Positions 11,379 to 48,530 of a stretch of DNA of 64,000 nucleotides are shown here, piece after piece. The translations under genes and the position numbers were made by a program. Source of the stretch: Squalus acanthias (lineage: Eukaryota); the NCBI GenBank assembly GCA_030390025.1, contig CM059432.1:13392001-13456000 (forward strand), read 5' to 3'. The notes beneath the pieces are model-generated. The model saw only the letters and a list, made by a program, of their open reading frames with translations, made no database searches and was not told the DNA's origin. Within the stretch, counting starts at the first letter, position 1, and every line of letters starts with the position of its first letter.

Positions 11379-12446
11379 ATAGAGTCATAACGGCACAGAA
11401 GGATTTCCATTCGGCCCATCGAGTCCGTGACTCCAGGATGGTATGTTGCCTCCCTGGTGCCAGGGTCAAGGATGTCACTGAGCGGCTGCAGGACACTCTG
11501 AGGGGGGAGGGTGAACAGCCAGAGGTCATTGTCCATATTGCTACCAATGACATAGGCAGAAAGAGGAATGAGGTCCTGCAGGCAGAGTTTAGGGAGCTAG
11601 GAGAGATTTTAAAAAGCAGGACCTCAAAGGTAGTAATCTCCGGATTACTCCCGGTGCCACGTGCTAGTGAGTACAGGAATAGGAGGATAGAACAGATGAA
11701 TGTGTGGCTGGAGAGATGGTGCAGGAGGGAGGGCTTTAGATTCCTGAGGCATTGGGACCATTTCTGGGGAAGGTGGGACCTGTACAAGCCGGACGGGTTA
11801 CACCTTAACAGAGCTGGGGCCAATATTCTCGCAGTGAGGTTTGCTAGTGCTGTTGGGGAGGCTTTAAACTAGCTTGGCAGGGGGGTGGGCACCTGCATAT
11901 AGAAGTAGAAAAGAGGAATAAAGTGCATACAAGAGTGAGTGCGTTGGATAGTACTAGAGAAGAAAGTAGTACTAGAGGCGGTAGTAATACCATATTAGAT
12001 AGGAGCAGTCTAAGAAAGACTACGAAAAATTCAAAAATGGGTTTAGAATGCATGTACGTAAACGCACAAAGTGTGGTGAATAAGGTTGGTGAGCTACAAG
12101 CACAATTAGCAGTGTGGCAATATGATGTTGTGGCCATAACGGAAACGTGGCTTAAAAACGGTGAGGACTGGGCACTTAATATTCAAGGGTACAAGGTGTT
12201 CAGAAAAGATAAGGAAGGAAAAAAGGGAGGTGGGGTGGCAGTGCTGGTTAAGGAAGACATTGTAGTGTTGGAAAGGAAGGATGTTCTTGAGGGGACAAGG
12301 ACAGAATCCATTTGGTTAGAGTTGAGGAGCAAAAAGGGTATGATCACGCTATTAGGTGTATTCTATCGGCCTTCAAATAGTGAGAGGGAGGTAGAGGAGC
12401 AAATCTGCAGGGAAATTGCAGAGATATGCAAGAGCTATAGAGTGGT

Positions 12447-14335
12447 TGAAGCGATTTTTACTAGTCCTAGCCCCTTTACGGCTACCCCGGATCAGGCGTA
12501 TTTCTCAAGGCATTCACTTTCAACTAAAGTTTGAGGTAGCCAAATCCTAAAGACGCTTAATTGGGTCTAAAGGTCCAGGCTATATCTCCCTAAAGGAAAG
12601 GAACAACCCGAGAATGTTACCGTCCTCCAGATAACGCTTTTAATAAGTTTAGCTAGACTGTAACTTTTCGGATATTATGAGGGTCCGGAAAACTCCCCAG
12701 AATTCTGTAACTCTCCACCAAAGAGTGTACAGAGATTGAGTTCGCAAATTTTTGATACAGAAGCCTTATGTGAGACAATTCTAAAAATATATAGATTTAT
12801 TAAAGAACCGACATGCAATTTACAGTTGGTGAATCAATTGCAACATTAATTGTTCTAAAAAGAGAAAAAATGCTATCTTATTATTAACAGAGAATCTTAG
12901 TTTTAAATCTTAACTTTTCTACAGTATTACAGTTCTTAAAGTGTTCTACAGGATATCCACCAATATCAAATACCTTTGATCCCTGAGGTACAAAGAGTTG
13001 GAGACTACAGAGCCACCTCTGAAGCCGAGAATCACTTTGCCTGATTAAAGCGAGTCTGTTATCCCATTTGAGAGTTCAATATTTATACCCTTTTCCAGTG
13101 GTATTTCCTTTAAGGTTTTCTGCTGATGCAAGCTAATTATCTCTAGTCATCTTTCTGCCAACCTCTGCAACTCTTACTGCCACCTCAGCCAGACTCGTGT
13201 CTCATCTCTAGATGTTCTAAGTTTACCATATAAAAATGGTGTGACAGCAGGTGTTCCTTACATTGTCAACATTATGAGAGCAGATGTTCCTTATCTTATG
13301 TGCTTCTTTATGAAGTGTAAATTAGAACACCTTATCCAGGGTGAACCATTGTTTCGTTCCCAAAAGTTCAGCCTGTTGGAGCCCTTCACCTTCTGTTTCA
13401 ATAAGGTTATTTATTCAGTGTGAACAACTATCTTATCTCAATATCCAGAATGCTTTCATAGCTATTTCATAGTTAGGTTTCTAAATTTCCAAACCCAGTT
13501 TGTCATGTTTTAATAAGGCCAGAATTCTTTCATAAGATAGTGGCCCAGAAATTCGCCTCTCCGGCTTGCCGCGGGGGTAAGGATCGCGCGCGCACTTACC
13601 TACCGCGCCTGCCGTTGTGTTTTGGGCCCACGGGAACTTCAGCTCCTGGTCCTGCTCCAAGAGCCGGCGCGCAGTGCTTGCGTGTCCCAGGGGCGTAGTT
13701 AGTGCGATGCGTCCCCTGGGATCACGTGGGCCTTGGAGAGCCAATGGCAGCAGACCATCTTTCATTCATAGATTTGACAGGAAGAGCTGTCAAATCTGTG
13801 AATTGAAATCGGCCCCAAAAGAACAGCTAAAATAAATTAAAAAATTTAAAAACCATCACATTTATAAAATAACTATAGTTAAATAAATTAACCACTTTAA
13901 ACAAAAATTTAAATTTTTGAAAAAATTAAAATACTTTTTAAAAGTGATAAAAATAAACTTACCTTTCTTTAAAGTATCTAAAAAAGATAAACCTGTTGAA
14001 AAAAAAATTAAATTATACTTAATTAACCACTTACCTTGTTGAAAACGGCTCCTGCGCCTCCTTTTTATAAGCGTAGGTTCTTCACTACTTACCCTCCCGT
14101 AGAAACCTGAAAAAAAATCTAAGTTCGCTGCGTGCGCGCAGCCTCTACCGCGCACGCGGTTCGCCCCCTTCACCAGACCGAAAGTTCCGGTTTCCCGCGC
14201 ATGCGCAGTGCATGCAGGAAACCGGCACTTCGGGATGCATTACGGGTGAGTACGCACTGTGTACTCACCCGGGAAGGGCCAAATTTTTGGCCCAGTGTAT
14301 TTTTCTGAATAGGTTATATGGCTTATTCCTTCACA
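12447..14335 (-). repeat. 3' LTR of the provirus (1134 bp after removing the MITE and its TSD)
   Basis: Colinear with 18668-19801. Termini are TGAAG...CCTTCACA. On the minus strand, TATAAATA lies at 13080-13087 and AATAAA at 12796-12801. Confidence 0.93.
13542..14293. mobile_element. PIF/Harbinger-like MITE (family A) inserted in the 3' LTR
   Basis: TIRs are GGCCCAGAAATT and AATTTTTGGCCC, with AGT on both flanks. It is absent from the 5' LTR. Paralogues lie at 27673-28438 and 44943-45681. Confidence 0.85.
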
Positions 14336-14346
14336 CACCCCTCTTG
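14336..14346 (-). promoter_or_regulatory. 3' polypurine tract
   Basis: The minus strand reads CAAGAGGGGTG immediately before the LTR start TGTGAAGG. Confidence 0.7.
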
Positions 14347-14620
14347 ACCAAAAAATGAGCTCGAGCATCAGGGCAGAGTTTGGTCAATGTTATAAATAAG
14401 GTTGCAATAGTACATTAATTTCACAAGATTCACAAGAGCCCACTCATGTGCTACATGAAAATTCCTTTAAGTCATCCCAGGACAATATTTTGCCTTATTT
14501 GAAATTGAACACAAATTAAAAGATTGATAGGTACATTGTCATGCAATTAGCGAAACAACATGTAATTAGAATGTCCATTTGACAGATGTACATTCCGTAG
14601 AGGTGAGTTATTTATATGAG

Positions 14621-14968
14621 TCAAGGAGACGTCATTTGGAGCTGGCTAAAGCTTGACACGCTGTTCCATTGATCCAGCGTGAGGACAGATTCTTGTTTTC
14701 GTAAAGGCTTTGCCAGAAGTTCATTTGACTCCTTCTCCATCCGCAGTGTTTTCCTCCTTCGTTGAAGTAACTTGTTGGTCTTTACTTGTTTTGGTTGTGG
14801 CTTTTTGCGAATCCAATTCCTGAGGCGTTGCCAAGCATCGTGTGGAGGAGTCGACGACACTGTCTGGCTGACCGTGGTCAGTAGTTCGATCGCATCCAAT
14901 TCCTGTGTCGTGCTCCAAGCTGGGTCTTGAAAGACAGTGTACGACTGCACCTTGTATTGTTCCTCCAT
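14621..14968 (-). pseudogene. Truncated env-position ORF (115 aa) overlapping the pol end
   Basis: The ATG lies within the pol QNG codons just after TVSIDNLK, the register I recall for prototype foamy virus env. No transmembrane segment appears before the stop. Confidence 0.55.
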
Positions 14969-16251
14969 TTTGGTATCCCACAGGACATCTTTTGAGATTG
15001 TCTATGGAGACAGTTTTAAGAATATGCTTGCCATTCGGCTGATTAATATGTATTTTAACAGTTCTTTCGTTAATAACGGAACATATTTGAACAGGTTTTT
15101 TCCACTTAGGTCTTAAACCAGGTTTTTGCTCGAACTTCTTTTCCTGTACCCATTCTCCTGCTAGGGGTTGCCATGCTTTGTTTGTCAATTTTTTCTGCCT
15201 ATTTGTCTCCCTTATCCTCTGATCAATTTGATGTATCTCCTCTGTTACTTCTTTTTTTAAATCTAACTGTCGCTGTCGGGTCAAGGAATCAGAGAGTGTA
15301 GAGGCAATAAAAGAACTATGGGTAAGTGATGTATGCATCTCAACCCCATACATTAGATAATATGGAGTTTTAGAGGACACTGTCCCTGATGCAGATGCGG
15401 GCACATTATTAAGTGCTAGCTGCACCTCCGGAATGACGGTGGTCCACTTATTTCCCCTGATTCTCAACAGTTTGACCAATAGCTTTTTTACTTCCTGGTT
15501 TTTACGTTCCACCAGCCCCGCTGATTGCGGATGACGTGACGTGCTGTGCTCTAACCCAATCCCCCTTTGTTCGCAGTAGTCTTTGAAGACCTTGGAGACA
15601 AAGGCTCCGCCTTTAACAGAGTGTAAGATCTTGGGTGCACCAGCTACAGTAATTATGTCAGTAATAGCATTGGCGAGTGCGTTTTCCAAAACAATTTTTG
15701 TGGGGACCAGCCAGCAGAAGGAAGTGCATCCATCTACACAAACAAGAACGTGTCTGTATCCCAAAGACGGGGGAAGTGGTCCAATGAAGTCAATAAAGAA
15801 TTTTCCCATTGGTTCATCAGCTTTCACAAGAGCCAATGGTGGTGGCTTAATTAGTGATGACTTATTGGTTAAATTGCATGGCTCACAATTTGCCATGTAT
15901 GTTTTACAGGCCTTAAGCATGCCTGGCCACCAATATAAGGGAATCAATTTGCAGAATGTTGTCCTGGCACCACAATGTGCTTGACCTATGCCCTCGTGAG
16001 CTTCTTTTACAAGCTGTTCTCGTTTGTGTCTCGGGGGCACTTCTCGGTTTCTCCTGGGCAACTTAACTAGCACAATACCAGTAGGGGTTTCCGAGTAAAA
16101 GTATTTTGATGGATATCCTGGTGGATTCTCTTTTGTTGGGTCTAGTAGCTGAATCAGTTCCTCATCCTGATTAGCTGCCCGTTCTGCCCTAGTGACAACA
16201 TTAATATTGGCAGGCCCCTCTCGAGGGGGTGTCATGCAGACCGAACGTTTC
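14721..16251 (-). pseudogene. pol: Foamy-like integrase (NED, HHCC, catalytic core, SH3-like CTD); second catalytic Asp changed to Val
   Basis: Motifs are GYPSKYFY...VPP...AH, H..H/CEPC, KFFIDFIGPLPPSLGY, PKILHSVKG, HPQSAGLVERKN, and GEWVQE...LRPKWKKP...TVSIDNLK. Confidence 0.9.
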
Positions 16252-16255
16252 GCTT

Positions 16256-17891
16256 CTCCCTGGACTCAGCAAAGATCCCGGCAGACTGGAAAACTGCTAA
16301 TGTAACACCCTTATTTAAAAAGGGCAGTAGACAGAAGGCTGGAAACTATAGACCGGTTAGCCTAACATCTGTGGTAGGTAAAATTTTGGAGTCCATTATT
16401 CAGGAGACAGTAATGGGACATTTGGATAATCATAATTTAATAGGACAAAGTCAGCATGGTTTTATGAAGGGGAAGTCATGTTTGACAAATTTGCTGGAGT
16501 TCTTTGAGGAAGTAACATACAGGGTGGATAAAGGGGAACCAGTGGATGTGGTGTATTTAGACTTCCAAAAGGCATTTGACAAGGTGCCACACAAAAGATT
16601 ATTGCTTAAGATAAAAAATCACGGGATTGGGGGTAATATTCTGGCATGGATAGAGGATTGGCTATCTAACAGAAGGCAGAGAGTTGGGATAAATGGTTCA
16701 TTCTCAGACTGGCAATCAGTAACTAGTGGTGTTCCGCAGGGGTCAGTGCTGGGTCCCCAACTCTTTACAATCTATATTAATGATTTGGAGGAGGGGACCG
16801 AGTGTAACATATCAAAGTTTGCAGATGATACTAAGATGGGAGGGAAAGTAATGAGTGAGGAGGACATAAAAAACCTGCAAGGGGACATAGACAGGCTAAG
16901 TAAGTGGGCAGAGATTTGGCAGATGGAATACAATACTGGAAAGTGTGAGGTTATGCACTTTGGCAGGAAAAATAGTAGAGCAAGTTATTATCTTAATGGC
17001 AAGAAACTGGAAAGTACTGAAGTACAACGGGATCTGGGGGTCCTGGTGCACGAAACTCAAAAGGTTAGTATGCAGGTGCAGCAAGTGATTAAGAAGGCCA
17101 ATGGAATGTTGGCTTTCATTGCTAGGGGGATAGAATATAAAAATAGGAAGGTATTGCTGCAGTTGTACAAGGTATTGGTGAGACCGCACCTGGAATACTG
17201 CATACAGTTTTGGTGTCCATACTTAAGAAAAGACATACTTGCTCTTGAGTCAGTACAAAGAAGGTTCACTCGGTTAATCCCAGGGATGAGGGGATGGACA
17301 TATGAGGAGAGGTTGGGTAGATTGGGACTCTACTCATTGGAGTTCAGAAGAATGAGAGGCGATCTTATTGAAACATATAAGATTGTGAAGGGGTTGGATT
17401 GGGTGGATGCGGGGAGGATGTTCCCGATGATGGGTGAAACTAGAATTAGGGGGCATAGTCTTAGAATAAGGGGCTGCTCTTTCAAAACTGAGATGAGAAG
17501 GAACTACTTCACTCAGAGGGTGGTAGGTCCATGGAATATGCTGCCCCAAAAAGCTGTAGAAGCTACATCATTACATAAATTTAAAACAGAAATAGACAGT
17601 TTCCTAGAAGTAAAGGGAATTAAAGGTTACGGGGAGCGGGCAGGAATTTGGACATGAGTCTAGGTTCGGATCGGTCATGGCCCTGTGGGTAGCGTAGCGG
17701 GCCCAGGGGCCGTGTAGCCTGATCCTGCTCCTATTTTGTGTGTCCAATTCTGTTAGGTTCAGGAGATGGTTCTGTGATAGTAGATTGGCGGTTAGGATCA
17801 GATCAGCCATGATCTTATTGAATGGCGGAGCAGGCTCGAGGGGCCAATTGGCCTACTCCTGCTCCTATTTCTTATGTTCTTATGTTCTTAT
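16256..17891 (+). mobile_element. 5'-truncated CR1 inserted into proviral pol, with an open 428-aa RT frame
   Basis: GCTT flanks both ends (16252-16255 and 17892-17895). It has QGSVLGP and FADD motifs and a (TTCTTATG)n tail. Confidence 0.92.
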
Positions 17892-18403
17892 GCTTGTTCG
17901 TCTGCAAGACTGTTTCCTTTTGACTGTACTGTCCCAGTGGTATGCCCGTTTGCATGAATCACCTGACAATTCTGTTTCTCCATCCTCGAACGGAGAATGT
18001 ATTCCCATAATGACTTATGTTTTATGGGTTTACCCTTATGATTGGTAAAGTTTGTTTGTTCCCAGAAAACTAGATCTTGGTTATATCCTCTTTTACAATA
18101 GTCACTATCCATACAGATTAATGTGCGTTTAATAGGGTCTGCCTTTTCTAAAGCATACCGTAGTACTGCGGCTTCAGCATATTGCGCTGTCTTATGGCCA
18201 AGGGGTATGAACAGTAATTCTTCTGGATAAAAAGAATAAGAATCTCGAAAAGTCCCAACTACTATCCCCATCCCAGCTGAGGATTGTTGGGATGTCCCTA
18301 TTTTAATCGTCATTGACGATCCATCACAGTAAATGACTTGATGGTAGCAATCGTTTGAATTTCCTAATAAAAAGACTTGGCCAATTCCAACAGGGTTTGT
18401 CAT
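17892..18403 (-). pseudogene. pol: Retroviral RNase H domain of pol
   Basis: YCDGS, AQYAEAA, CMDSDY, NHKGKPIKHKSLW (basic C-helix loop), HANGH and GNSLADEQA. The D-E-D-D set is intact. Confidence 0.9.
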
Positions 18404-18647
18404 TTCGTCAGGGCCTAACCTCGGTTAGGATTTAATATGAACTTTATAAGAAATTTCTAGACCTCAATGGTATATTGAGGGAGTTCTCATTTAAATTCTA
18501 CAAGGCCTGATCAGGGACTTGTCATGTCTAGAGACTTAAATCTGGGTCTTAGTACCACTGTCAGTAAAACACTCCTTCTATACTTAACAATCTACGAGAT
18601 GGATATAGATATAAATATAAGTATAGGGTTCTGTATCAACTCATTAA

Positions 18648-18665
18648 CACACATGTTGGGCGCCA
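18648..18665 (-). promoter_or_regulatory. Primer binding site, tRNA-Lys(1,2)-type
   Basis: The minus strand reads TGGCGCCCAACATGTGTG two nt after the LTR end. The first 11 nt match TGGCGCCCAACGTGGGGC. Confidence 0.85.
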
Positions 18666-18667
18666 AC

Positions 18668-19801
18668 TGAAGGGATAATTACTAGTCCTAGCCCCTTTAC
18701 GGCTACCCCAGATCAGGCGTATTTCTCAAGACGTTCACTTTCAACTAAAGTGTGAGGTAGCCGAATCCTAAAGACGCGTAATTGGGTCTTAAGGTCCAGA
18801 CTATCTCTCCTTAAAGGAAAGGAACAACCCGAGAATGTTACCGTCCTCCAGATAGCGCTTTTAATAAGTTTAGCTAGACTGTAACTTTCCGGATATTATG
18901 AGGGTCCGGAAAACTCCCCAGAATTCTGTAACTCTCCACCAAAGAGTGTACAGAGATTGAGTTCGCAAATTTTTGATACAGAAGCCTTATGTGAGACAAT
19001 TCTAAAAATATATAGATTTATTAAAGAACTGACATGCAATTTACAGTTGGTGAATCAATCACAACATTAATCGTTCTAAAAAGAGAAAAAATGCTATCCT
19101 ATTATTAACAGAGAATCTTAGTTTTAAATCTTAACTTTTCTACAGTATTACAGTTCTTAAAGTGTTCTACAGGATATCCACCAATATCAAATACCTTTGA
19201 TCCCTGAGGTACGAAGAGTTGGAGACTACAGAGCCACCTCTGAAGCCGAGAATCACTTTGCCCGATTAAAGCGAGTCTGTTATCCCATTTGAGAGTTCAA
19301 TATTTATACCCTTTTCCAGTGGTATTTCCTTTAAGGTTTTCTGCCGATGCAAGCTAATTATCTCTAGTCATCTTTCTGCCAACCTCTGCAACTCTTACTG
19401 CCACCTCAGCCAGACTCGTGTCTCATCTCTAGATGTTCTAAGTTTACCATATAAAAATGGTGTGACAGCAGGTGTTCCTTACATTGTCAACATTATGAGA
19501 GCAGATGTTCCTTATCTTATGTGCTTCTTTACGAAGTGTAAATTAGAACACCTTATCCAGGGTGAACTATTGTTTAGTTCCCAAAAGTTCAGCCTGTCGG
19601 AGCCCTTCACCATCTGTTTCAATAAGGTTATTTATTCAGGGTCAACAACTATCTTATCTCAATAGCCAGAATGCGTTCATAGCTATTTCATAGTTAGGTT
19701 TCTAAATTCCCAAACCCAGTTTGTCATGTTTTAATAAGGCCAGAATTCTTTCATAAGATAATGTATTTTTCTGAATAGGTTATATGGCTTATTCCTTCAC
19801 A
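18668..19801 (-). repeat. 5' LTR of the provirus (1134 bp)
   Basis: Adjacent to the PBS. On the minus strand, TATAAATA is at 19301-19308, a candidate donor AAG|GTATTT at ~19194, and AATAAA at 19017-19022. Confidence 0.93.
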
Positions 19802-20499
19802 TGGTGATATTGGGGGACTTTAATTACCCAAATATTGATTGGGATAATGCTGGGGCAAAGGGAAAGGAAAGGGAGGAATTTCTGAAATGTGTTCAGGAGA
19901 ATTTCCTTGACCAATATGTTCTTGGCCCAACTAGGAAGGAGGCATTGCTGAATCTGGTGCTGGGGAATGAGGTGGGCCAGGTCGACCAAGTGTCTGTGGG
20001 AGAACACTTGGGTATGAGTGATCATCGTAGCATAAGATTTAGATTAGCAATGGAGAGGAGCAAGGAACAATCTAGAGTGGAACTTCTAAACTGGAATAGG
20101 GCTAACTTCAATGGGATGCAAAAGGATCTAGCCAGGGTAAAATGGAACCAAAGACTGACAGGAAAAACTGTAACGGAACAATGGGTGATCTTTAAGGAGG
20201 AGATGTTCCAAGTACAGGCTAGGTACATTCCAACAAGAGGGAAGGGTAAGGGAACCAAAGCAAAGGCTCCTTGGATGACGAGGGAGATAGAGAAGATGAT
20301 GAAACAAAAAAGGAGGGTGTATGATGCATGTCAGGTGAATGCTTCAAGGGAGAACCAGACCAAATACAATAAGTTGAGAGAGGAAGTGAAGATGAAAATA
20401 AGATTGGCAAAGAGAGAATATGAGAGTAGAATGGCGGTTAACATAAAAGGGAACCCAAAAATCTTCTACCGGCATGTAAACAGTAAGCGGGTCGTAAGA

Positions 20500-21001
20500 A
20501 CATAAGAACATAAGAACATAAGAAATAGGAGCAGGAGTAGGCCAATCGGCCCCTCGAGCCTGCTCCGCCATTCAATAAGATCATGGCTGATCTGATCCTA
20601 ACCGCCAATCTACTATCTATCACAGAACCATCTCCTGCATCTAACAGAATTGCACACACGAAATAGGAGCAGAATCAGGCTACACAGTCCCTGGGCCCGC
20701 TCCACTACCCACAGGGCCATGACCGATCCGAACCTAGACTCATGTCCAAATTCCTGCCCGCTCCCCGTAACCCTTAATGCCCTTTACTTCTAGGAAACTG
20801 TCTATTTCTGTTTTAAATTTAATTAATGTTGTAGCTTCTACAGCTTTTTGTGGCAGCATATTCCATGGACCTACCACCCTCTGAGTGAAGTAGTTCCTCC
20901 TCATCTCAGTTTTGAAAGAGCAGCCCCTTATTCTAAGACTATGTCCCCTAGTTCTCGTCTCACCCGTCATCGGGAACATCCTCCCCGCATCCACCCGATC
21001 C
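20500..21001 (-). mobile_element. CR1 3' fragment, same subfamily as 16256-17891, inverted within the host CR1
   Basis: AAGA flanks both ends (20496-20499 and 21002-21005). It shares the C-terminus ...GERAGIWT and the extended 3' UTR. Confidence 0.88.
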
Positions 21002-21630
21002 AAGAGGCGGGGTGGGGCCTATTAGAGACAAAAAAGGTGATATATGCTTAGGGGTGCAGGACAAAGCTAGAATACTCAATGAGTACTTTGTATCAGTGTT
21101 TACTAAGGAGGTGGATGCTAACAAAATATCGGTAGAAGTGGAAAAGGTAGAAGCAATGGAAGGGGTGACAATTGATAGACAGGATGTACTAGAAAGGTTG
21201 GATATGCTTAGAGTGGATAAGTTGCTTGGTCCAGATGGCTTGCATCCCAGGTTGCTAAGGGAACTGGGGGAGGAGATAGAGGAAGGGCTTGCCATAATTT
21301 TCCAATTTTCCCTAGATGCGGGGGAGGTGCCTAAGGATTGGAAAGTGGCAAATGTGGCACCATTGTTGAAGAAAGGGTGTAAGGACAATCCTAGTAACTA
21401 CAGTTTAACATCAGTGGTGGGTAAAGTTTTAGAAACAATAATCAAGGAAAAAATTAATGGGCATTTGGAGAGGTTTAAGCTTATTAAGGAGAGCCAACAT
21501 GGATTTGTAAAAGGCAGATCGTGTTTGACTTATCTAATTGAATTTTTTGATGAAGTAACAGGGAGGGTTGATGAAGGGAATGCAATGGATGTTGTCTACA
21601 TGGATTTTTGGAAGGCGTTTGACAAAGTAC

Positions 21631-27672: not shown

Positions 27673-28438
27673 GGCCCAGAAATTCGGCTCCCTGGCTTCC
27701 CGCGGGTGCAAGGATCGCGCGCACACCTACCTACCGCGCCTGCCGTTGACCTCTGGGCCCACGGGGACTTCAGCTCCTGGGCCTCCTGCAGCTGCCGGCG
27801 CGCAGTGCTTGTGTATCCCAGGGGCGTAGTTAGTGCAATGCGTCCCCTGGGATCACGTGGGCCATGGAGAGCCAATGGCAGCAGACCATCTTTCATTCAT
27901 AGATTTGACAGGACCTGTCAAATCTATGAATTGAAATCGGCCCCAAAACAACACCTAAACTTCAAATAAATTTAAAAAAAAACACCATCACATTTTAAAA
28001 ATAACTATAAGTTAAATAAATTAACTACTTTAAACAAAAATTTAAATTTTTGAAAAAATTAAAATACTTTTTAACAGTGCTAAAAATAAACTTACCTTTC
28101 TTTAAAGTATCTAAAAAAGATAAACCTGTTGAAAATTTTTTTTTAATTGTAATTAATTAACCACTTACCTTGTTAAAAACGGGTCTTGCGCCTCCTTTTT
28201 AAAAGCGCAGCTTCTTCCATACTTACCTTCCCGGAGAAACCTGAAAAAAAACCTAAGTTCGCTGCGTGCGCGCAGCCTCTACCACGCACACGGTTCACCT
28301 CTCAACCGCTCCCTTCACGAGACCGGAAGTTCCGGTTTCCCGCGCATGCGCAGTGCATGCAGGAAACCAGCACTTCAGGAGGCCTTACGGGTGAGTACAC
28401 AGCGCGTACTCACCCGGCAAGTGCTGAATTTTTGGCCC
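27673..28438. mobile_element. PIF/Harbinger-like MITE (family A)
   Basis: Same TIRs and body as 13542-14293, with AAT and ATT flanks. Confidence 0.85.
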
Positions 28439-29979
28439 ATTGTCAGCATGGCAAACTATTCCAAAAAACTGATCATTCATTATCACTCTTTGAGTAAATA
28501 AGTTCTTTTTGATTTCTTTTTTAAATTAACCTTTCACTAATTTTCATTTAAGATTTCTGTTCCTACTTTGTCTGGTTTACTTGGATGTAATAATCTTGGT
28601 TTAGCCTATCCATATCATTAAAGGAAGATCTCTGCTGGAACGGCCATGTGTGTGTCAAGAAGGGTCAAGCTCAGCTGTGATGCCTCCCAGATTGAAAGCC
28701 TGCCTTTAATCAGCATCTGGTCTCATGCACGAAGAATACCAGAGGGTGGCCAACATTCGTGCAATGATACCGCAGCATGAATCAACCTCTTCAGGAAGGA
28801 GGGGAGACACTGGAAGGGGAAAAGATAGTTGAGTTCTGTTGCATTGGAATGCCATGATCAATATGCAGGTACTAGCAGGGTGGTGATGACAAGGCCTGAG
28901 CGCTCTTGAAGACCAAATTGGTCAGTGCCAAGAATGGTATTGAGCCATGACAAACAGGACAGTCCCAGTTTCTGTTTCCACTCTACGCTGAGTTAGCTGA
29001 TCTTAGCACGGGCAGATTTAGGGCACTAGAATTAGGCCTGGTCGAGGGAGGAGAACACTTATCCAGGACTTCCGTCACTGATTGCTATTCAGATGAGGAA
29101 AGGATCATGGCTTGGCTGCGATGCCCCAGGGGCCTCCTGGCCCACAGGGTCAAGGTTTCCACAGGAAGAATTGCCACTTGGGAAAGATATCTGAGCATCT
29201 GTGGAACCACAACTGCAAGAAGAATTTAAAATGACAACACTAAGGAAGAAAAAAACAGATAATACTCAAAATATTATCTGAAAAAAGCAAAGTAGGTTAA
29301 TGTTTTGGTATAACCTTTCAGGAGTAGAAGGGAGTAAATGGAAAGAAAAACAGAAACAGAAGCCACCTGCTGACAGTACCGTTCCACTTGTCATGTCGGT
29401 GAGGACAAGGTCAAGTTGGTTATGTTGTCATCCAAGATTGAAGAGCCTGCCAATATTCACTATCCAAACTCACACATAAAGAATGGGTACTTTGGAAAGG
29501 TACAGGTCCAATAACATTTTAATTTAAAACACATGAAATATCTCATCTCAGCAGAGATTCTAAACATGTTTTAAATTATAATGTTATGGGGGAGGAGAGG
29601 TGTTTCATTTGATAGTGCAGTACTTCTCCCAGAGTACTGGTAAAAAGATAAAAGGTTTTATCAAAATATTAACCTATCTTTCAGATCTGTGGTGGACCTT
29701 GACTATTTATTATCTGTGTTTTTCTCCTACAGTATTTAAATTCTTGTCACAGAAACCCTTGGAAATTTGATAAGTTCCTGATGATCCTTATGGAGCAATG
29801 AAATAATAATTCATTCTGTTCTGTAGACTGTATGTAAGTAAGTATTACCACTCGACTTTCACATTTGCATACAGTAAATAACCATTGACACAGCCTAGTG
29901 TAGAGGATAATGGGTACTTGTAAGTGAACTACAGCATTCCTGGCTTTTAAGGGCTCAGTACCATATCACATGGTACACT

Positions 29980-44942: not shown

Positions 44943-45681
44943 GGCCCAGAAATTGATCTCGCTCTGTTCCCGCGGGGGTAAGGAGCAGACGCGATCTCTC
45001 ACTCCGCGTTGGCTTTTTCAGATCCAGCTCGCACGAACTTGATGTTCCGGACATCAGCTGGGCAGTGCTTGCGTATCCCACCGGCGTAGTGAATTTGTGC
45101 GAGCTGTGGGATCACGTGACTCAGTTAGAGCCAATGGCAACACACCATCTTCCATTCATAAGTTTCACATACGTGCTGTGAAAGCTATGAATCTTACACC
45201 CCCCCAAAATAACAGCTAAACCTCAATTAAATTTAAAAAAAACCATCACATTAATAAAATAAGTATAGTTAAATAAATTAACCATTTTAAATAAAAAATT
45301 AAATTTTTGAAAAAATTTAAAATCTTTTAAAAAGTTATAAAAATAAACTTACCTGTCTTTAAAGTCTCTAAAAAAGATATACCTGTTAAAAAAAATTCAA
45401 AAAAATACTTAATTCACTACTTACCTTGTTAAAAGTGGGTCTTACTCCTTTTTCCATTTCTAAAATCTTCAGTACTTACCTGCGCGTCCAAAGCACTAAG
45501 TGCACAGCGTGCGCGCAGCCTGTAGCGCGCACGCGATGCACCGAGGAACCGCCCCCTTTTCCAAAGACCAAGTGCCGGTTTTCAGCGCATGCGCAGGGCA
45601 TGCAGAAAACCGGCAATTGGAGAGAGAATACGCGAGAGTACGCAGTGCGTACTCTCGTGCAGCGGGATGAATTTTTGGCCC
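44943..45681. mobile_element. PIF/Harbinger-like MITE (family A, diverged subfamily)
   Basis: TIRs are GGCCCAGAAATT and AATTTTTGGCCC, with AAT on both flanks. Confidence 0.85.
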
Positions 45682-48530
45682 AATGTGTTTGAATTATTGG
45701 GCTAGTAAATCAAGAAAGAATGGTACATGAGAAGATGGCCTTTTATAAACATTGTGTGACAGTAGAGGACAATTTTACTCTGGTCTTCATGGTGGAAAAG
45801 GAGGCTAGAGTTTTTGCAAGATTAGAGAAGGGAAGATGCCTATATTCATTAGTATAAGAACATTGTACGGAATAAACTAGGGGAATTGAAAGAAATAGGC
45901 GAGAAAATTGAAAATCTTTAGTTCTTTGGCTCGGTGTCAATTTTTGTCTGATTATGCTCCTGTGAAGCGCCTTACGACGTTTTCCTACGTTAAAAGGTGC
46001 TAAATAAATGCTAGTTGTTGCATCATCCCAACTGCGCTGGATAATATTGGGGGATTGTAAATGCTACACTATTGCAAAACGGGAGCAAAGGACAATTCAA
46101 GTAACTACAGGCCAATGAATTACACATCAGTAGTGTTAAAATTACTAGAATCCATAATCTGGGATATAGTTGGCATGATTTTGTGAAAGATAGGTCACAT
46201 TTGTCTAAGCTATTGAAGTCCTTTGGGGAATTTAAATGACAGTGATTCCCCCCCATTTCTGATGTGTGCTTCTGACAGGTGAGGCCCCTCTCCAGAAGCT
46301 TGAAATTACAAAATTAGCCCTTAAATCTGTTAGTTCCAGGGTTAATCATGAACTATCTAAGATAATTTGAACAATTTCAAGGTGTTGTAAATTCAGACTC
46401 AAACAATTTCAATGCTGTAGATTTTGGTACAACACCAAAATGTGAAGATAGAAATAGGGCTGCATTTGTCGTTCATGTTTCCTGCTCATTTCAAAGTGTT
46501 GCTTTTAAGATTGCAGCCTTGGGTGCCCTTTTATAATTTTTCTTCCTCCCTCCCTGAAGGCTCTACACATTCCATGGCTGAGGTCAGATTGGAAGTCTGC
46601 TTCCAGGCTTCCTCCTGTGCTGTGTTCTCTCTGGTCATGGGCATTTACCAAGTGCCTGAGCTAAGAGAGGGAGCACCAGTTGAATTCTGTTCTGTATCCA
46701 GCTGGTACTGATTATAGTCCCTCGAAGATCAATATTGAGGCTGGTCACCAGCGCTTGTTGCTGAGTGGAGTTTGTCACAGATGCACACGTAAACTGTCAA
46801 CAGAGCAGCTCCCTGGTTAAAGATTGTGGGTATGGAATAATTAGAACTATATGTCCGAAAGTGTTTTCAGATATTCTACAAATATGTACTTTATAGATGA
46901 ACATTTGTGACGAGTGATCTTTGTTATTGCTCGGATCTGCCTAGAAGCTGGTATTTTTTGCTGCCAGTGGGACTTTTTATGCCAAATTGTTGTAGTCGGA
47001 GAGCTATCTGTGGTAAGTGTAGAAATTTGTTAGGTTTGTCATGGGATGTTGTATTGTATTGGTGTATTTATATTGTGTACTCTACCCTGGGCCTCCAACA
47101 CTTTTTTCCACCAATTTTCTTCCACTCCCCAGGTCACCTAAAACTCTTGGGACCAAATTTCCGACCACTTGCTCTGGTGGCAGAGTGGGTCGTAAGTCTA
47201 TGATCCCCAAAGATGCAGACCCTGTCTTTAAATTGTGAGGACAGAGTTATTGGCATAGCCGGGGTGGCCAGCACTTGCAAGAGTGCTTCAGTCACATCTG
47301 CCATTTAAAGCTGGAGCAAAGCTTGCTCTGCCTGAGGTGGCCTGAGGCCCTTTCTGAGCCCAAGGCAAAAGGGAGTTTAGAAATTCTTCAGCTGCTAAAG
47401 GAACCAGTTCCTTGAGTAGCATAGATAATTGATGCCTTCTGAGAATCGATTATCTTTGAGAGACTATTAGTGGCTTTCCTTGTGCCTCATCGGTACTCTC
47501 GTCAGCTCGCTGGGCGTAATGAACGGGATTCCTGTTGTAGCCTGACTACTCCCCAGACGTGTCCTTTAATGTTGGGCGAGTGGGTTGGAAGATTCGCTCA
47601 GGCCCCCCACCCCACTGGAATTTCTTGTAAGGGTGAAAATGAGGCAGAATCCTGGTGGAACCAACTTCCGCCTATTTCCAGTCCCTCGACCGGAGAGCCA
47701 CTTCACTTGCATCTTGGCCCAGACTGGAATTTCACGCCCCTTGACTCCATCAGACATTGGGAGTCTTTTTGAAGACCCATTCAATTGTCATTATTCACGT
47801 GACCTTTATGATTAATGCTGGCAAGCTATTTAACTGAGGGAATCTTGCCCGGCATCTGTGCACTTCCAGCTGGTGGTATGGGATAGGAACCTTGGCTGAT
47901 TTTTATTCTTCTTAAGCCAGGGCACTTGGGTCAATTTAGCATCCCTACTGCAAGACCAGCTGAGAGCTAACTTTTCCCAGACCAAGGAGCTGACCGAGGA
48001 GGGGCGCTCCCTTTTAAATCAGCTAATTCTGATACTTGCAAAACTACAATAAAATCTTAGTGTTTCTGTCAGGGAAACTTGATGGAAGTGACACTACTGT
48101 GTTCAAGTGACGTCCTTTCGTTGTCACTTTCCACCTTAAAAAAAAAAAGTCACTGAGACTAGTAAATCAAACAAAATAGCAATGTGGCTCCACATTACTG
48201 TGTGAGCTATGCTTTTGCAGTGGAATGTTTGGAAGAAAGTCTTATTAATATAATTTTGCAGTTGGCTTAATGAAGTCTAGTACATCAAAGATGTATTTCA
48301 ACTAGCTCAACTACAATGTTTATCAAAGCAGTGTTGTCCCGGAAGCAAATACTATTTTACACCCTAGTGCCTTTAGCTCCTGTATCTGCTCTGAACAGGC
48401 AGGTGATTTGTGACTTTATAGTACAGTACATCGATTTTCCTATTATGTCAGCACTGTGTATAAGGAGTCGTTCAGATTTATAGTTCAAATAGGTTGCAAT
48501 TACAAATAACATTTCTGATGTCTCTGCCAG

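Follow-up and report, generated by a model that had tools for sequence, protein, structure and literature searches.

The 64,000-nt stretch of Squalus acanthias DNA analysed here (the window) carries on its minus strand, at 12447-19801, a foamy-virus-like provirus that had been picked out in an earlier sequence-only reading. The provirus is real, with two long terminal repeats (LTRs) and a target-site duplication (TSD), yet incomplete: gag is almost entirely missing, as are the whole of the protease (PR) and reverse transcriptase (RT) regions and most of env, and two later inserts interrupt what is left. Two things escaped the earlier reading. This copy is a non-autonomous, double-deletion derivative of a family of several hundred copies, and the family lacks a defining foamy feature, a separate pol frame with its own start codon. 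The window copy itself is a dead, internally deleted relic without sign of host function, and the interest lies in the family's bearing on early foamy virus biology rather than in the relic.

The provirus has TG...CA ends at 12447 and 19801 and is flanked by the identical 4-bp TSD TGGT at 12443-12446 and 19802-19805. It cleanly interrupts the endonuclease frame of a CR1 element, both halves of which match endonuclease families, and the TSD is therefore independently supported. The 5' LTR (18668-19801, minus strand) has the 1134 bp originally given for both repeats, with TATAAA at LTR position 494 and AATAAA at 780. The 3' LTR (12447-14335, minus strand) measures 1889 bp, made up of the 1134-bp LTR and a 755-bp inverted-repeat element that resembles a miniature inverted-repeat transposable element (MITE; 13539-14293) and has an apparent 3-bp duplication. 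The pair differs at 34 of 1134 aligned sites, a Kimura two-parameter distance of 0.031. Read in the sense direction, the interior consists of 2 nt, the primer-binding site (PBS), a leader, a gag-tip/RNase H frame, a CR1 insert, integrase, 385 nt and the polypurine tract (PPT). The PBS (18648-18665), TGGCGCCCAAC, begins 2 nt past the 5' LTR and is of tRNA-Lys1,2 type, a sequence that the family form matches over 14 nt only. The leader (18404-18647) ends at the gag ATG at 18403, and gag codons 1-19 (18346-18403) are joined in frame by a deletion of about 3.3 kb to RNase H (17892-18345), whose top matches are foamy Pol. RNase H is thus present as claimed, but the frame is not one gene, its first 19 codons being the start of gag.

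A 5'-truncated, chordate-type CR1 long interspersed nuclear element (LINE) of about 1.6 kb, on the plus strand at 16256-17891, separates RNase H from integrase; it carries a 4-bp duplication and is private to this copy. The foamy-type integrase (14721-16255, minus strand) comprises the N-terminal extension, H2C2, core and SH3 domains within an open frame at 14721-16265 that holds all four motifs previously listed. Its alignment with prototype foamy virus (PFV) integrase starts at PFV residue 9, so that the proposed N-terminal extension is present, and shows that the second acidic residue of the catalytic triad has been replaced. The start of env, about 90 codons of leader peptide at 14693-14968 on the minus strand, overlaps the 3' end of integrase in another frame. 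The rest of env is reduced to a remnant within the block at 14346-14720, which consists of about 27 nt past the pol stop, a 35-nt island from the surface/transmembrane region and about 320 nt of 3' untranslated sequence before the PPT, a layout left by two env deletions common to other copies. The purine tract at 14345-14336 adjoins the 3' LTR and confirms the PPT of the earlier reading. Subtracting the two later inserts leaves an interior of about 2.7 kb, the length found in five other copies (2686-2748 nt).

Family members are abundant in the 3.71-Gb genome that was searched. A 433-bp LTR query gave 3116 candidates, the 40 scored being all at least 93% identical, and all 150 scored integrase matches were at least 88% identical; two of 28 other fetched LTR loci adjoin internal sequence. 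Pattern counts allowed at most one mismatch, gave zero for every reversed-pattern control and are floors. They amount to at least 341 copies of the PBS genome-wide, at least 248 of the env-less junction found at the env joint of the window copy, at least 237 of the PPT and at least 147 of a pattern diagnostic of an intact RT side. The window-type junction from gag to RNase H occurs in at least 57 places (the window and 56 others) and a second type of gag junction has at least 80 matches. A genome-wide search for longer copies, which the sequence-only reading had proposed, found gag-pol copies and about seven env-bearing copies, six places by Pfam in a strict first look and one by pattern, with integrase DNA 88-95% identical to that of the window. 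The env-side junction has 14 matches that are not all env-bearing (six of seven newly fetched ones have an intermediate env deletion), and the 147 RT-side-intact matches include non-autonomous copies, since other deletions were present in most of the 12 that were sampled from a single variant class.

The copies form three tiers: about seven with env, many env-less gag-pol copies, and non-autonomous derivatives, with 3' pol kept in all. Loss of env was stepwise, as six fetched copies retain about 250-300 nt of it and the majority just the 35-nt island. Among the first 20 PPT-anchored copies, all 20 have integrase beside a deleted env (18 fully deleted and 2 intermediate). TSDs of exactly 4 bp flank 16 of 24 solo LTRs and 13 of 16 two-LTR copies, and none is 5 or 6 bp long. 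Deleted copies have distinct flanks and their own TSDs, and the same internal deletion recurs at many independent sites, as in a non-autonomous env-less subfamily. A private deletion after insertion was considered for the window copy and rejected, its junctions being common to at least 57 and 248 places. Median LTR-LTR distances are 0.048 for the window type (n = 7), 0.035 for the second type (n = 18), 0.027 for gag-pol copies (n = 3) and 0.044 for copies with an intermediate env (n = 5). The window copy would be about 31 Myr old at 0.5e-9 substitutions per site per year, the rate of PMC10699275, and 70 Myr old at the rate implied in PMC4422223.

Near-identical family sequence also occurs in public runs under six coded organism labels. 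Four unplaced contigs (L034, L046, L047 and L079) carry near-identical short copies that have a hybrid junction and whose 3' LTRs are all cut at one position; these are probably segmental or satellite-linked duplicates and not separate insertions. Two pairs of copies lie 7 and 16 kb apart (L162/L163 on C1 and L175/L176 on C2), one pair with an LTR piece joined into integrase, and are possible tandem or nested insertions.

Judged from its proteins, the family almost certainly belongs to the foamy lineage. The window integrase matches PFV integrase at E 2e-79, compared with 2e-14 for Ty3 and 4e-5 or weaker for lentiviral or HTLV cores, and the window RNase H matches foamy Pol at E 3.5e-25, compared with 4e-4 for the next non-foamy chain. 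The natural open Pol frame of a longer copy, compared with six simian foamy Pols over 92% of its length, shows 38-39% identity, whereas other full-length rows reach only 25-29%. In a Pol search of 1.84 billion representatives, the top two matches were feline foamy Pol (39%) and P0026, a protein of 1687 aa (37%). Longer copies have Gag_FV_central (E 1e-14), Spuma_A9PTase and Foamy_virus_ENV domains, all above the Pfam cut-off. The protease domain scores 24.7-26.6 bits (cut-off 21) in three copies, besides weak RVP scores, and the Env domain gives 11 matches at six places, with three segments over the cut-off, in env-bearing copies only. A Cys-His box is absent from all eight gag regions, the end of Gag is Gly/Arg/Gln-rich without clear GR boxes, and its N-terminal 150 residues have no Pfam or Atlas match. 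A homolog search with the window integrase gave none at E <= 1e-25 among 7530 word-sharing candidates of 279-891 aa, which reflects a limit of that search method, as foamy matches appeared in other searches.

In a 34-row RT tree the family is sister to P0026 (99/91) within an 11-row clade (96/85) that also holds the mammalian foamy viruses, a Scyliorhinus torazame RT and a newt RT. A Callorhinchus RT and three unnamed or mislabelled rows fall outside this clade, and epsilon-like and Gypsy rows further out. A 27-row integrase tree, from which one further row was dropped for want of an alignment, agrees, but its foamy group has support of only 89/92 and takes in two long rows, which speaks somewhat against the placement. 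Neither tree, in a sampling without CoeEFV, named teleost foamy-like endogenous retroviruses (FLERVs) or named ERV-L rows, puts the family with Gypsy or epsilon-like rows. The spumaretroviral assignment made from the window thus stands, with integrase, RNase H, RT, Gag central domain, protease and Env all foamy-like. We nevertheless file the family as foamy-lineage and not as a full member of the Spumaretrovirinae, because in the copies analysed two defining features fail, the separate pol frame and the accessory genes. The sister sequence P0026 comes from a Logan contig of 10,956 nt and has Gag, protease, RT, RNase H and integrase in one frame of 1687 aa, with a DTG protease. The S. torazame row (P0059, GCB66461.1) is a gene model in which a PRDM11 PR domain is fused to a fragment of a foamy-like RT, probably mispredicted across an intronic endogenous retrovirus (ERV).

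The short copies show a regularity in their deletions. Each of the 19 short junction rows continues the frame of the gag ATG, with two main types, one hybrid of those two and one variant among them, and other deletion lineages exist as well. Nine junctions occur in at least two copies, within the Gag-Pol frame and before integrase, and seven of these nine are in frame (p = 0.008 against one in three). The single-copy junctions that this count excludes comprise two in frame, one out of frame, one ambiguous and one that removes the ATG. The leader and integrase persist in every fetched lineage, as does at least part of the RNase H end. In foamy viruses the cis-acting sequences CAS I and CAS II map to regions that the deleted copies keep, CAS II lying in 3' pol (PMC3705302). 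Splicing was tried as the origin of the gag-RNase H and env deletions and rejected, the junction ends being short homologies and not GT-AG.

Mobilisation of the short copies in trans is very probable. Integrase DNA of short and long copies is intermixed in a star-like tree of 67 rows, which, together with the hybrid junction, is as expected of co-packaging and recombination. Among non-CpG integrase variants of all 67 copies, shared variants are less often replacements (85:59, replacement to synonymous) than singletons are (419:148; p = 0.0007), and the helper lineages were therefore under purifying selection; 19 of the 67 copies were picked by protein similarity, which biases the sample toward open frames. 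By analogy with CAS II, there is about an even chance that 3' pol was kept for a role in packaging. More tentatively, the bias toward in-frame deletions may reflect selection for RNAs in which translation reaches the end and which thereby escape nonsense-mediated decay. Several observations weigh against these proposals. The in-frame rule is not absolute, because both out-of-frame junctions belong to one lineage of five copies that spread with integrase kept but out of frame. The nine junctions were chosen after the data had been seen, and some lie on short homologies. In the two main short lineages alone the contrast between shared and singleton variants is not significant (24:17 versus 287:113, replacement or stop to synonymous; p = 0.10). 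Retention of integrase may also be inertia, as the samples are biased by the family patterns and many copies were found via pol.

RNase H and integrase could instead have been kept because a fused Gag-tip/RNase H/integrase protein was needed or favoured in cis, with no RNA signal involved. The 19 in-frame short junctions and the seven in-frame shared deletions would fit such a protein, as would the synonymous lean of the shared variants in the two short lineages, but that lean falls short of significance and can arise by recombination with helpers. Several deletions cut into RNase H, the lineage that spread with integrase out of frame has a near-neutral pN/pS of 0.88, and foamy integrase by itself is not packaged (PMC3705302). 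We consider a cis-acting protein unlikely and prefer retention of 3' pol as an RNA signal.

The layout at the gag-pol junction sets the family apart from known foamy viruses, in which Pol comes from a spliced mRNA independently of Gag (PMC3705302). In gag-pol copies the Gag frame runs through a single codon position and at once into the protease in the same frame. At this position 14 of 18 copies have TGA, three TGG and one TGC, and the codon lies 28 codons ahead of the Asp of the DTG protease motif. The distance from the gag ATG through the junction codon is 1578 nt (526 codons) in six copies summed, with private indels counted. TGA is found in an env-bearing copy, an intermediate copy and both env-less branches, and copies with TGG occur here and there on the tree. 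Wherever the protease start is intact, no in-frame Met lies between the junction stop and the protease Asp. As judged from DNA layout only, the foamy trait of a separate Pol frame with its own start codon is absent. Decay of a CpG-containing Arg codon was tried as a source of the TGA and rejected, there being no CGA or CAA among the 18 copies. Shared gag variants show no clear excess at third codon positions. A two-copy lineage (L109 and L115) combines an in-frame deletion of the Gag central domain with a sense codon in place of the gag stop, and its deletion joint also occurs in three public runs.

This arrangement suggests that Pol was likely made as a Gag-Pol fusion, and somewhat less firmly that the fusion arose through readthrough of the TGA. 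The RT sister P0026, with Gag and Pol in a single frame, offers a second hint of Gag-Pol fusion at the base of the foamy clade, from one contig. On the other side stand the sense codons at the junction in four of 18 copies, one of the TGG copies being env-bearing. Hairpins after the stop in the 18 copies have z-scores of -0.2 to -2.7, which are not significant, and two hairpins compete. Neither an accessory open reading frame (ORF) nor a central PPT was found, which also counts against the preferred interpretation: no frame of at least 50 codons corresponding to tas or bel2 is common to four env-bearing copies in the roughly 550 nt between the env stop and the LTR, in copies that are decayed, and the integrase of the window copy, the one scanned, contains no duplicate of the PPT.

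Expression of Pol in the foamy manner is improbable. A spliced RNA, an internal promoter or a non-AUG start would then bypass the TGA, and the in-frame layout would be incidental or intermediate. All modern foamy viruses make Pol in this way (PMC3705302), weak in-frame donor and acceptor candidates, picked by eye and unscored, are present near the gag start and just past the stop, and the gag-UGA-pol layout of Tca2 need not use a local readthrough signal (PMC2194720). Against it are the absence of an in-frame Met noted above, the purine-rich sequence ahead of the candidate acceptor, and the orthoretrovirus-like DTG motif of the protease. No deletion junction in the fetched copies has GT-AG ends leading to the protease start. 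Four public contig sets placed on a gag-pol copy, with no GT-AG joint into protease among the 15 of 46 joints and 40 of 319 variant rows listed, speak neither for nor against splicing or expression.

It is less probable still that gag and pol formed one uninterrupted frame in the infectious virus, the TGA being an early defect carried along by helpers with a sense codon; Pol would be a fusion in this case too. The TGG and TGC copies, and the single Gag-Pol frame of the nearest RT relative, are compatible with such a history. It accords poorly with the presence of TGA in env-bearing, intermediate and both env-less branches and with the scatter of the TGG copies, and an equal ratio of Gag to Gag-Pol is poorly tolerated by retroviruses. 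A stop just before the protease start is moreover what readthrough viruses and XtERV-S have (PMC8278194). That the family is instead Gypsy, ERV-L/ERV-S-like or epsilon-like, so that its readthrough layout would be ordinary, is very improbable: an in-frame gag-TGA-pol is reported for class III XtERV-S and fish epsilon-related viruses (PMC8278194, PMC13517186) and both trees lack named ERV-L rows, but the foamy-specific Pfam domains in Gag, protease and Env, the higher Pol identity to foamy viruses than to other full-length rows, and both trees contradict it. We therefore retain readthrough of a gag-TGA-pol frame in a foamy-lineage virus as the preferred interpretation.

The primer site has a consistent peculiarity. 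In 59 of 63 distinct fetched copies the PBS departs from the full-length form after 14 nt. The 18-nt form, which we take to be the complement of tRNA-Lys1,2, occurs in two of the 63, an env-bearing and a short copy, each of which has lost the same 3 nt behind the PBS. Genome-wide, 341 matches to the 14-nt form compare with three to the 18-nt form, the second pattern being slightly stricter. The gap between LTR and PBS is 2 nt in all 63 copies. This suggests that tRNA-Lys1,2 serves as the primer, yet that the PBS is seldom overwritten by the copy of the tRNA. At the other end of the internal region, three variants of the last PPT bases coexist, the commonest having TG between the purine run and the LTR start. 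At this variable border the TG might mean that the U3 end is processed, unlike in PFV.

Most of the window is made of CR1-type LINE fragments in either orientation, with at least 60 direct-repeat families, and no tRNA gene was found in 1-64000. The CR1 within pol has an open RT frame of 461 codons, and an inverted 3' copy with 94% identity lies 2.8 kb away at 20617-21003; this CR1 subfamily is therefore younger than the provirus. The MITE-like element in the 3' LTR is about 750 bp long with short terminal inverted repeats and presumably resembles PIF/Harbinger-like MITEs. Related copies lie in the window at 27968-28443 and 45225-45686, and others are inside several other family members.

Taken together, these results can be accommodated in the following history, which as a whole we regard as reasonably well favoured. 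A foamy-lineage retrovirus with the structure LTR-gag-pol-env-LTR and no clear accessory gene would have entered the germ line of the host fish. Env would have been lost in two steps, and the virus would then have proliferated within cells as a gag-pol retrotransposon without env; such intracellular spread is probable, even though complementation with Env from other copies could account for the spread as well. Template switching during this burst may have produced shorter RNAs without gag, PR and RT that kept the needs in cis, namely the LTRs, PBS, leader with gag start, 3' pol and PPT, and helper copies would have packaged, reverse-transcribed and integrated them. The window copy would be one such non-autonomous copy, into which the CR1 and the MITE inserted afterwards. 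Pol would most likely have been a Gag-Pol fusion made by stop-codon readthrough, as in gamma- and epsilonretroviruses, and not the product of a spliced mRNA; 3' pol would most likely have been retained as a packaging signal like foamy CAS II, and the in-frame deletions would most likely have been selected for an RNA translated to its end.

Textbooks separate foamy viruses from all other retroviruses by the independent expression of Pol. A family at the base of the foamy lineage whose gag and pol share a frame across a stop is a concrete test object for the origin of this trait, and it would place the capsid and envelope, and probably also the 3'-pol packaging signal, ahead of the accessory genes and spliced Pol. 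It also indicates that loss of env and multiplication to hundreds of copies are open to a foamy-type virus, although such viruses normally depend on Env and seldom become endogenous, and the series of deletions provides a natural map of the cis needs of the RNA. The most far-reaching formulation is a tentative one: the family may be an early-branching true foamy lineage with UGA-readthrough Gag-Pol and no Tas/Bet, in which case spliced Pol postdates the foamy capsid and envelope as well as the 3'-pol packaging signal, and this lineage turned into an env-less retrotransposon whose offspring are natural counterparts of foamy vectors, with in-frame deletions and a rarely overwritten 14-nt PBS. 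The papers searched contained no such proposal.

The family resembles the exogenous foamy viruses (PFV, simian and feline foamy viruses) in its four-domain integrase, its Pol (38-39% identical over 92%), its Gag central domain, A9-type protease and Env, and its lack of a Cys-His box. It also shares with them a PBS of Lys type, presuming the tRNA identity, a 4-bp TSD and an env start that overlaps the end of pol. Its deleted copies keep the regions of CAS I and CAS II (PMC3705302). It differs in that gag and pol are one frame split by a TGA, pol has no start codon, the protease has a DTG motif, no Tas/Bel2-like ORF between env and LTR and no central PPT was found, and the Gag N-terminal domain is unmatched. 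Its PBS pairs over 14 nt, and it has hundreds of env-less endogenous copies.

Endogenous foamy-like viruses of cartilaginous fishes are already published (PMC10699275; PMC5512871). ERV-Spuma.0-Sca (PMC10699275), CmiFLERV (PMC5512871) and the teleost FLERVs (PMC5210030) have, like the family, a foamy-like Pol, and, as PMC5210030 describes, mostly a Lys PBS, a 4-nt TSD, GGGTG at the PPT/LTR border and a Gln/Gly/Arg-rich Gag end without a Cys-His box. Teleost FLERVs have several accessory ORFs and gag and env genes without detectable foamy homology (PMC5210030), in contrast to the recognisable foamy Gag and Env of the family, and the catshark element ERV-Spuma.0-Sca groups with them (PMC10699275). 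In the available portions of the published texts on these three groups, readthrough terms do not occur. The named elasmobranch foamy-like RT in our tree, that of S. torazame, is 41% identical to the family (50% in the RT core) and is not its sister, and the Callorhinchus RT, outside the 11-row clade, is 35% identical. Wang, Chen and Cui (J Virol, 2023) reportedly describe a cartilaginous-fish foamy ERV that roots those of vertebrates, which is where the family falls.

CoeEFV and the amphibian endogenous foamy viruses are likewise non-mammalian foamy ERVs with conserved Env and Gag domains and up to about 130 copies, but they have three main ORFs and one or two accessory ORFs (PMC3386198; bioRxiv 2020.12.18.423569; PMC12690878). 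The accessible parts of these accounts mention no env-less or non-autonomous expansion and no gag-pol readthrough. More broadly, the literature searched, which left figures, supplements and the 2023 paper on cartilaginous fish outside, yielded neither for foamy-lineage ERVs, and a 2026 review of readthrough does not mention 'foamy' or 'spuma'. An in-frame UGA between gag and pol is known from XtERV-S, SSSV and ZFERV (PMC8278194, PMC13517186). Gamma- and epsilonretroviruses also have an in-frame stop between gag and pol, as in the family; all of these viruses lie outside the foamy clade and have other types of Env.

In its mode of spread the family is like the env-less ERV megafamilies that Magiorkinis et al. 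(2012) are said to describe. IAP and IAP-delta, and MusD and ETn, lost env, expanded and gave rise to elements with shared internal deletions that are mobilised in trans. Those megafamilies are derived from orthoretroviruses or ERV-L, whereas the non-autonomous derivative described here keeps 3' pol in frame with the gag start. In capsid, envelope and integrase, and probably in RNA packaging, the family resembles foamy viruses, and its spread resembles that of an env-less ERV megafamily.

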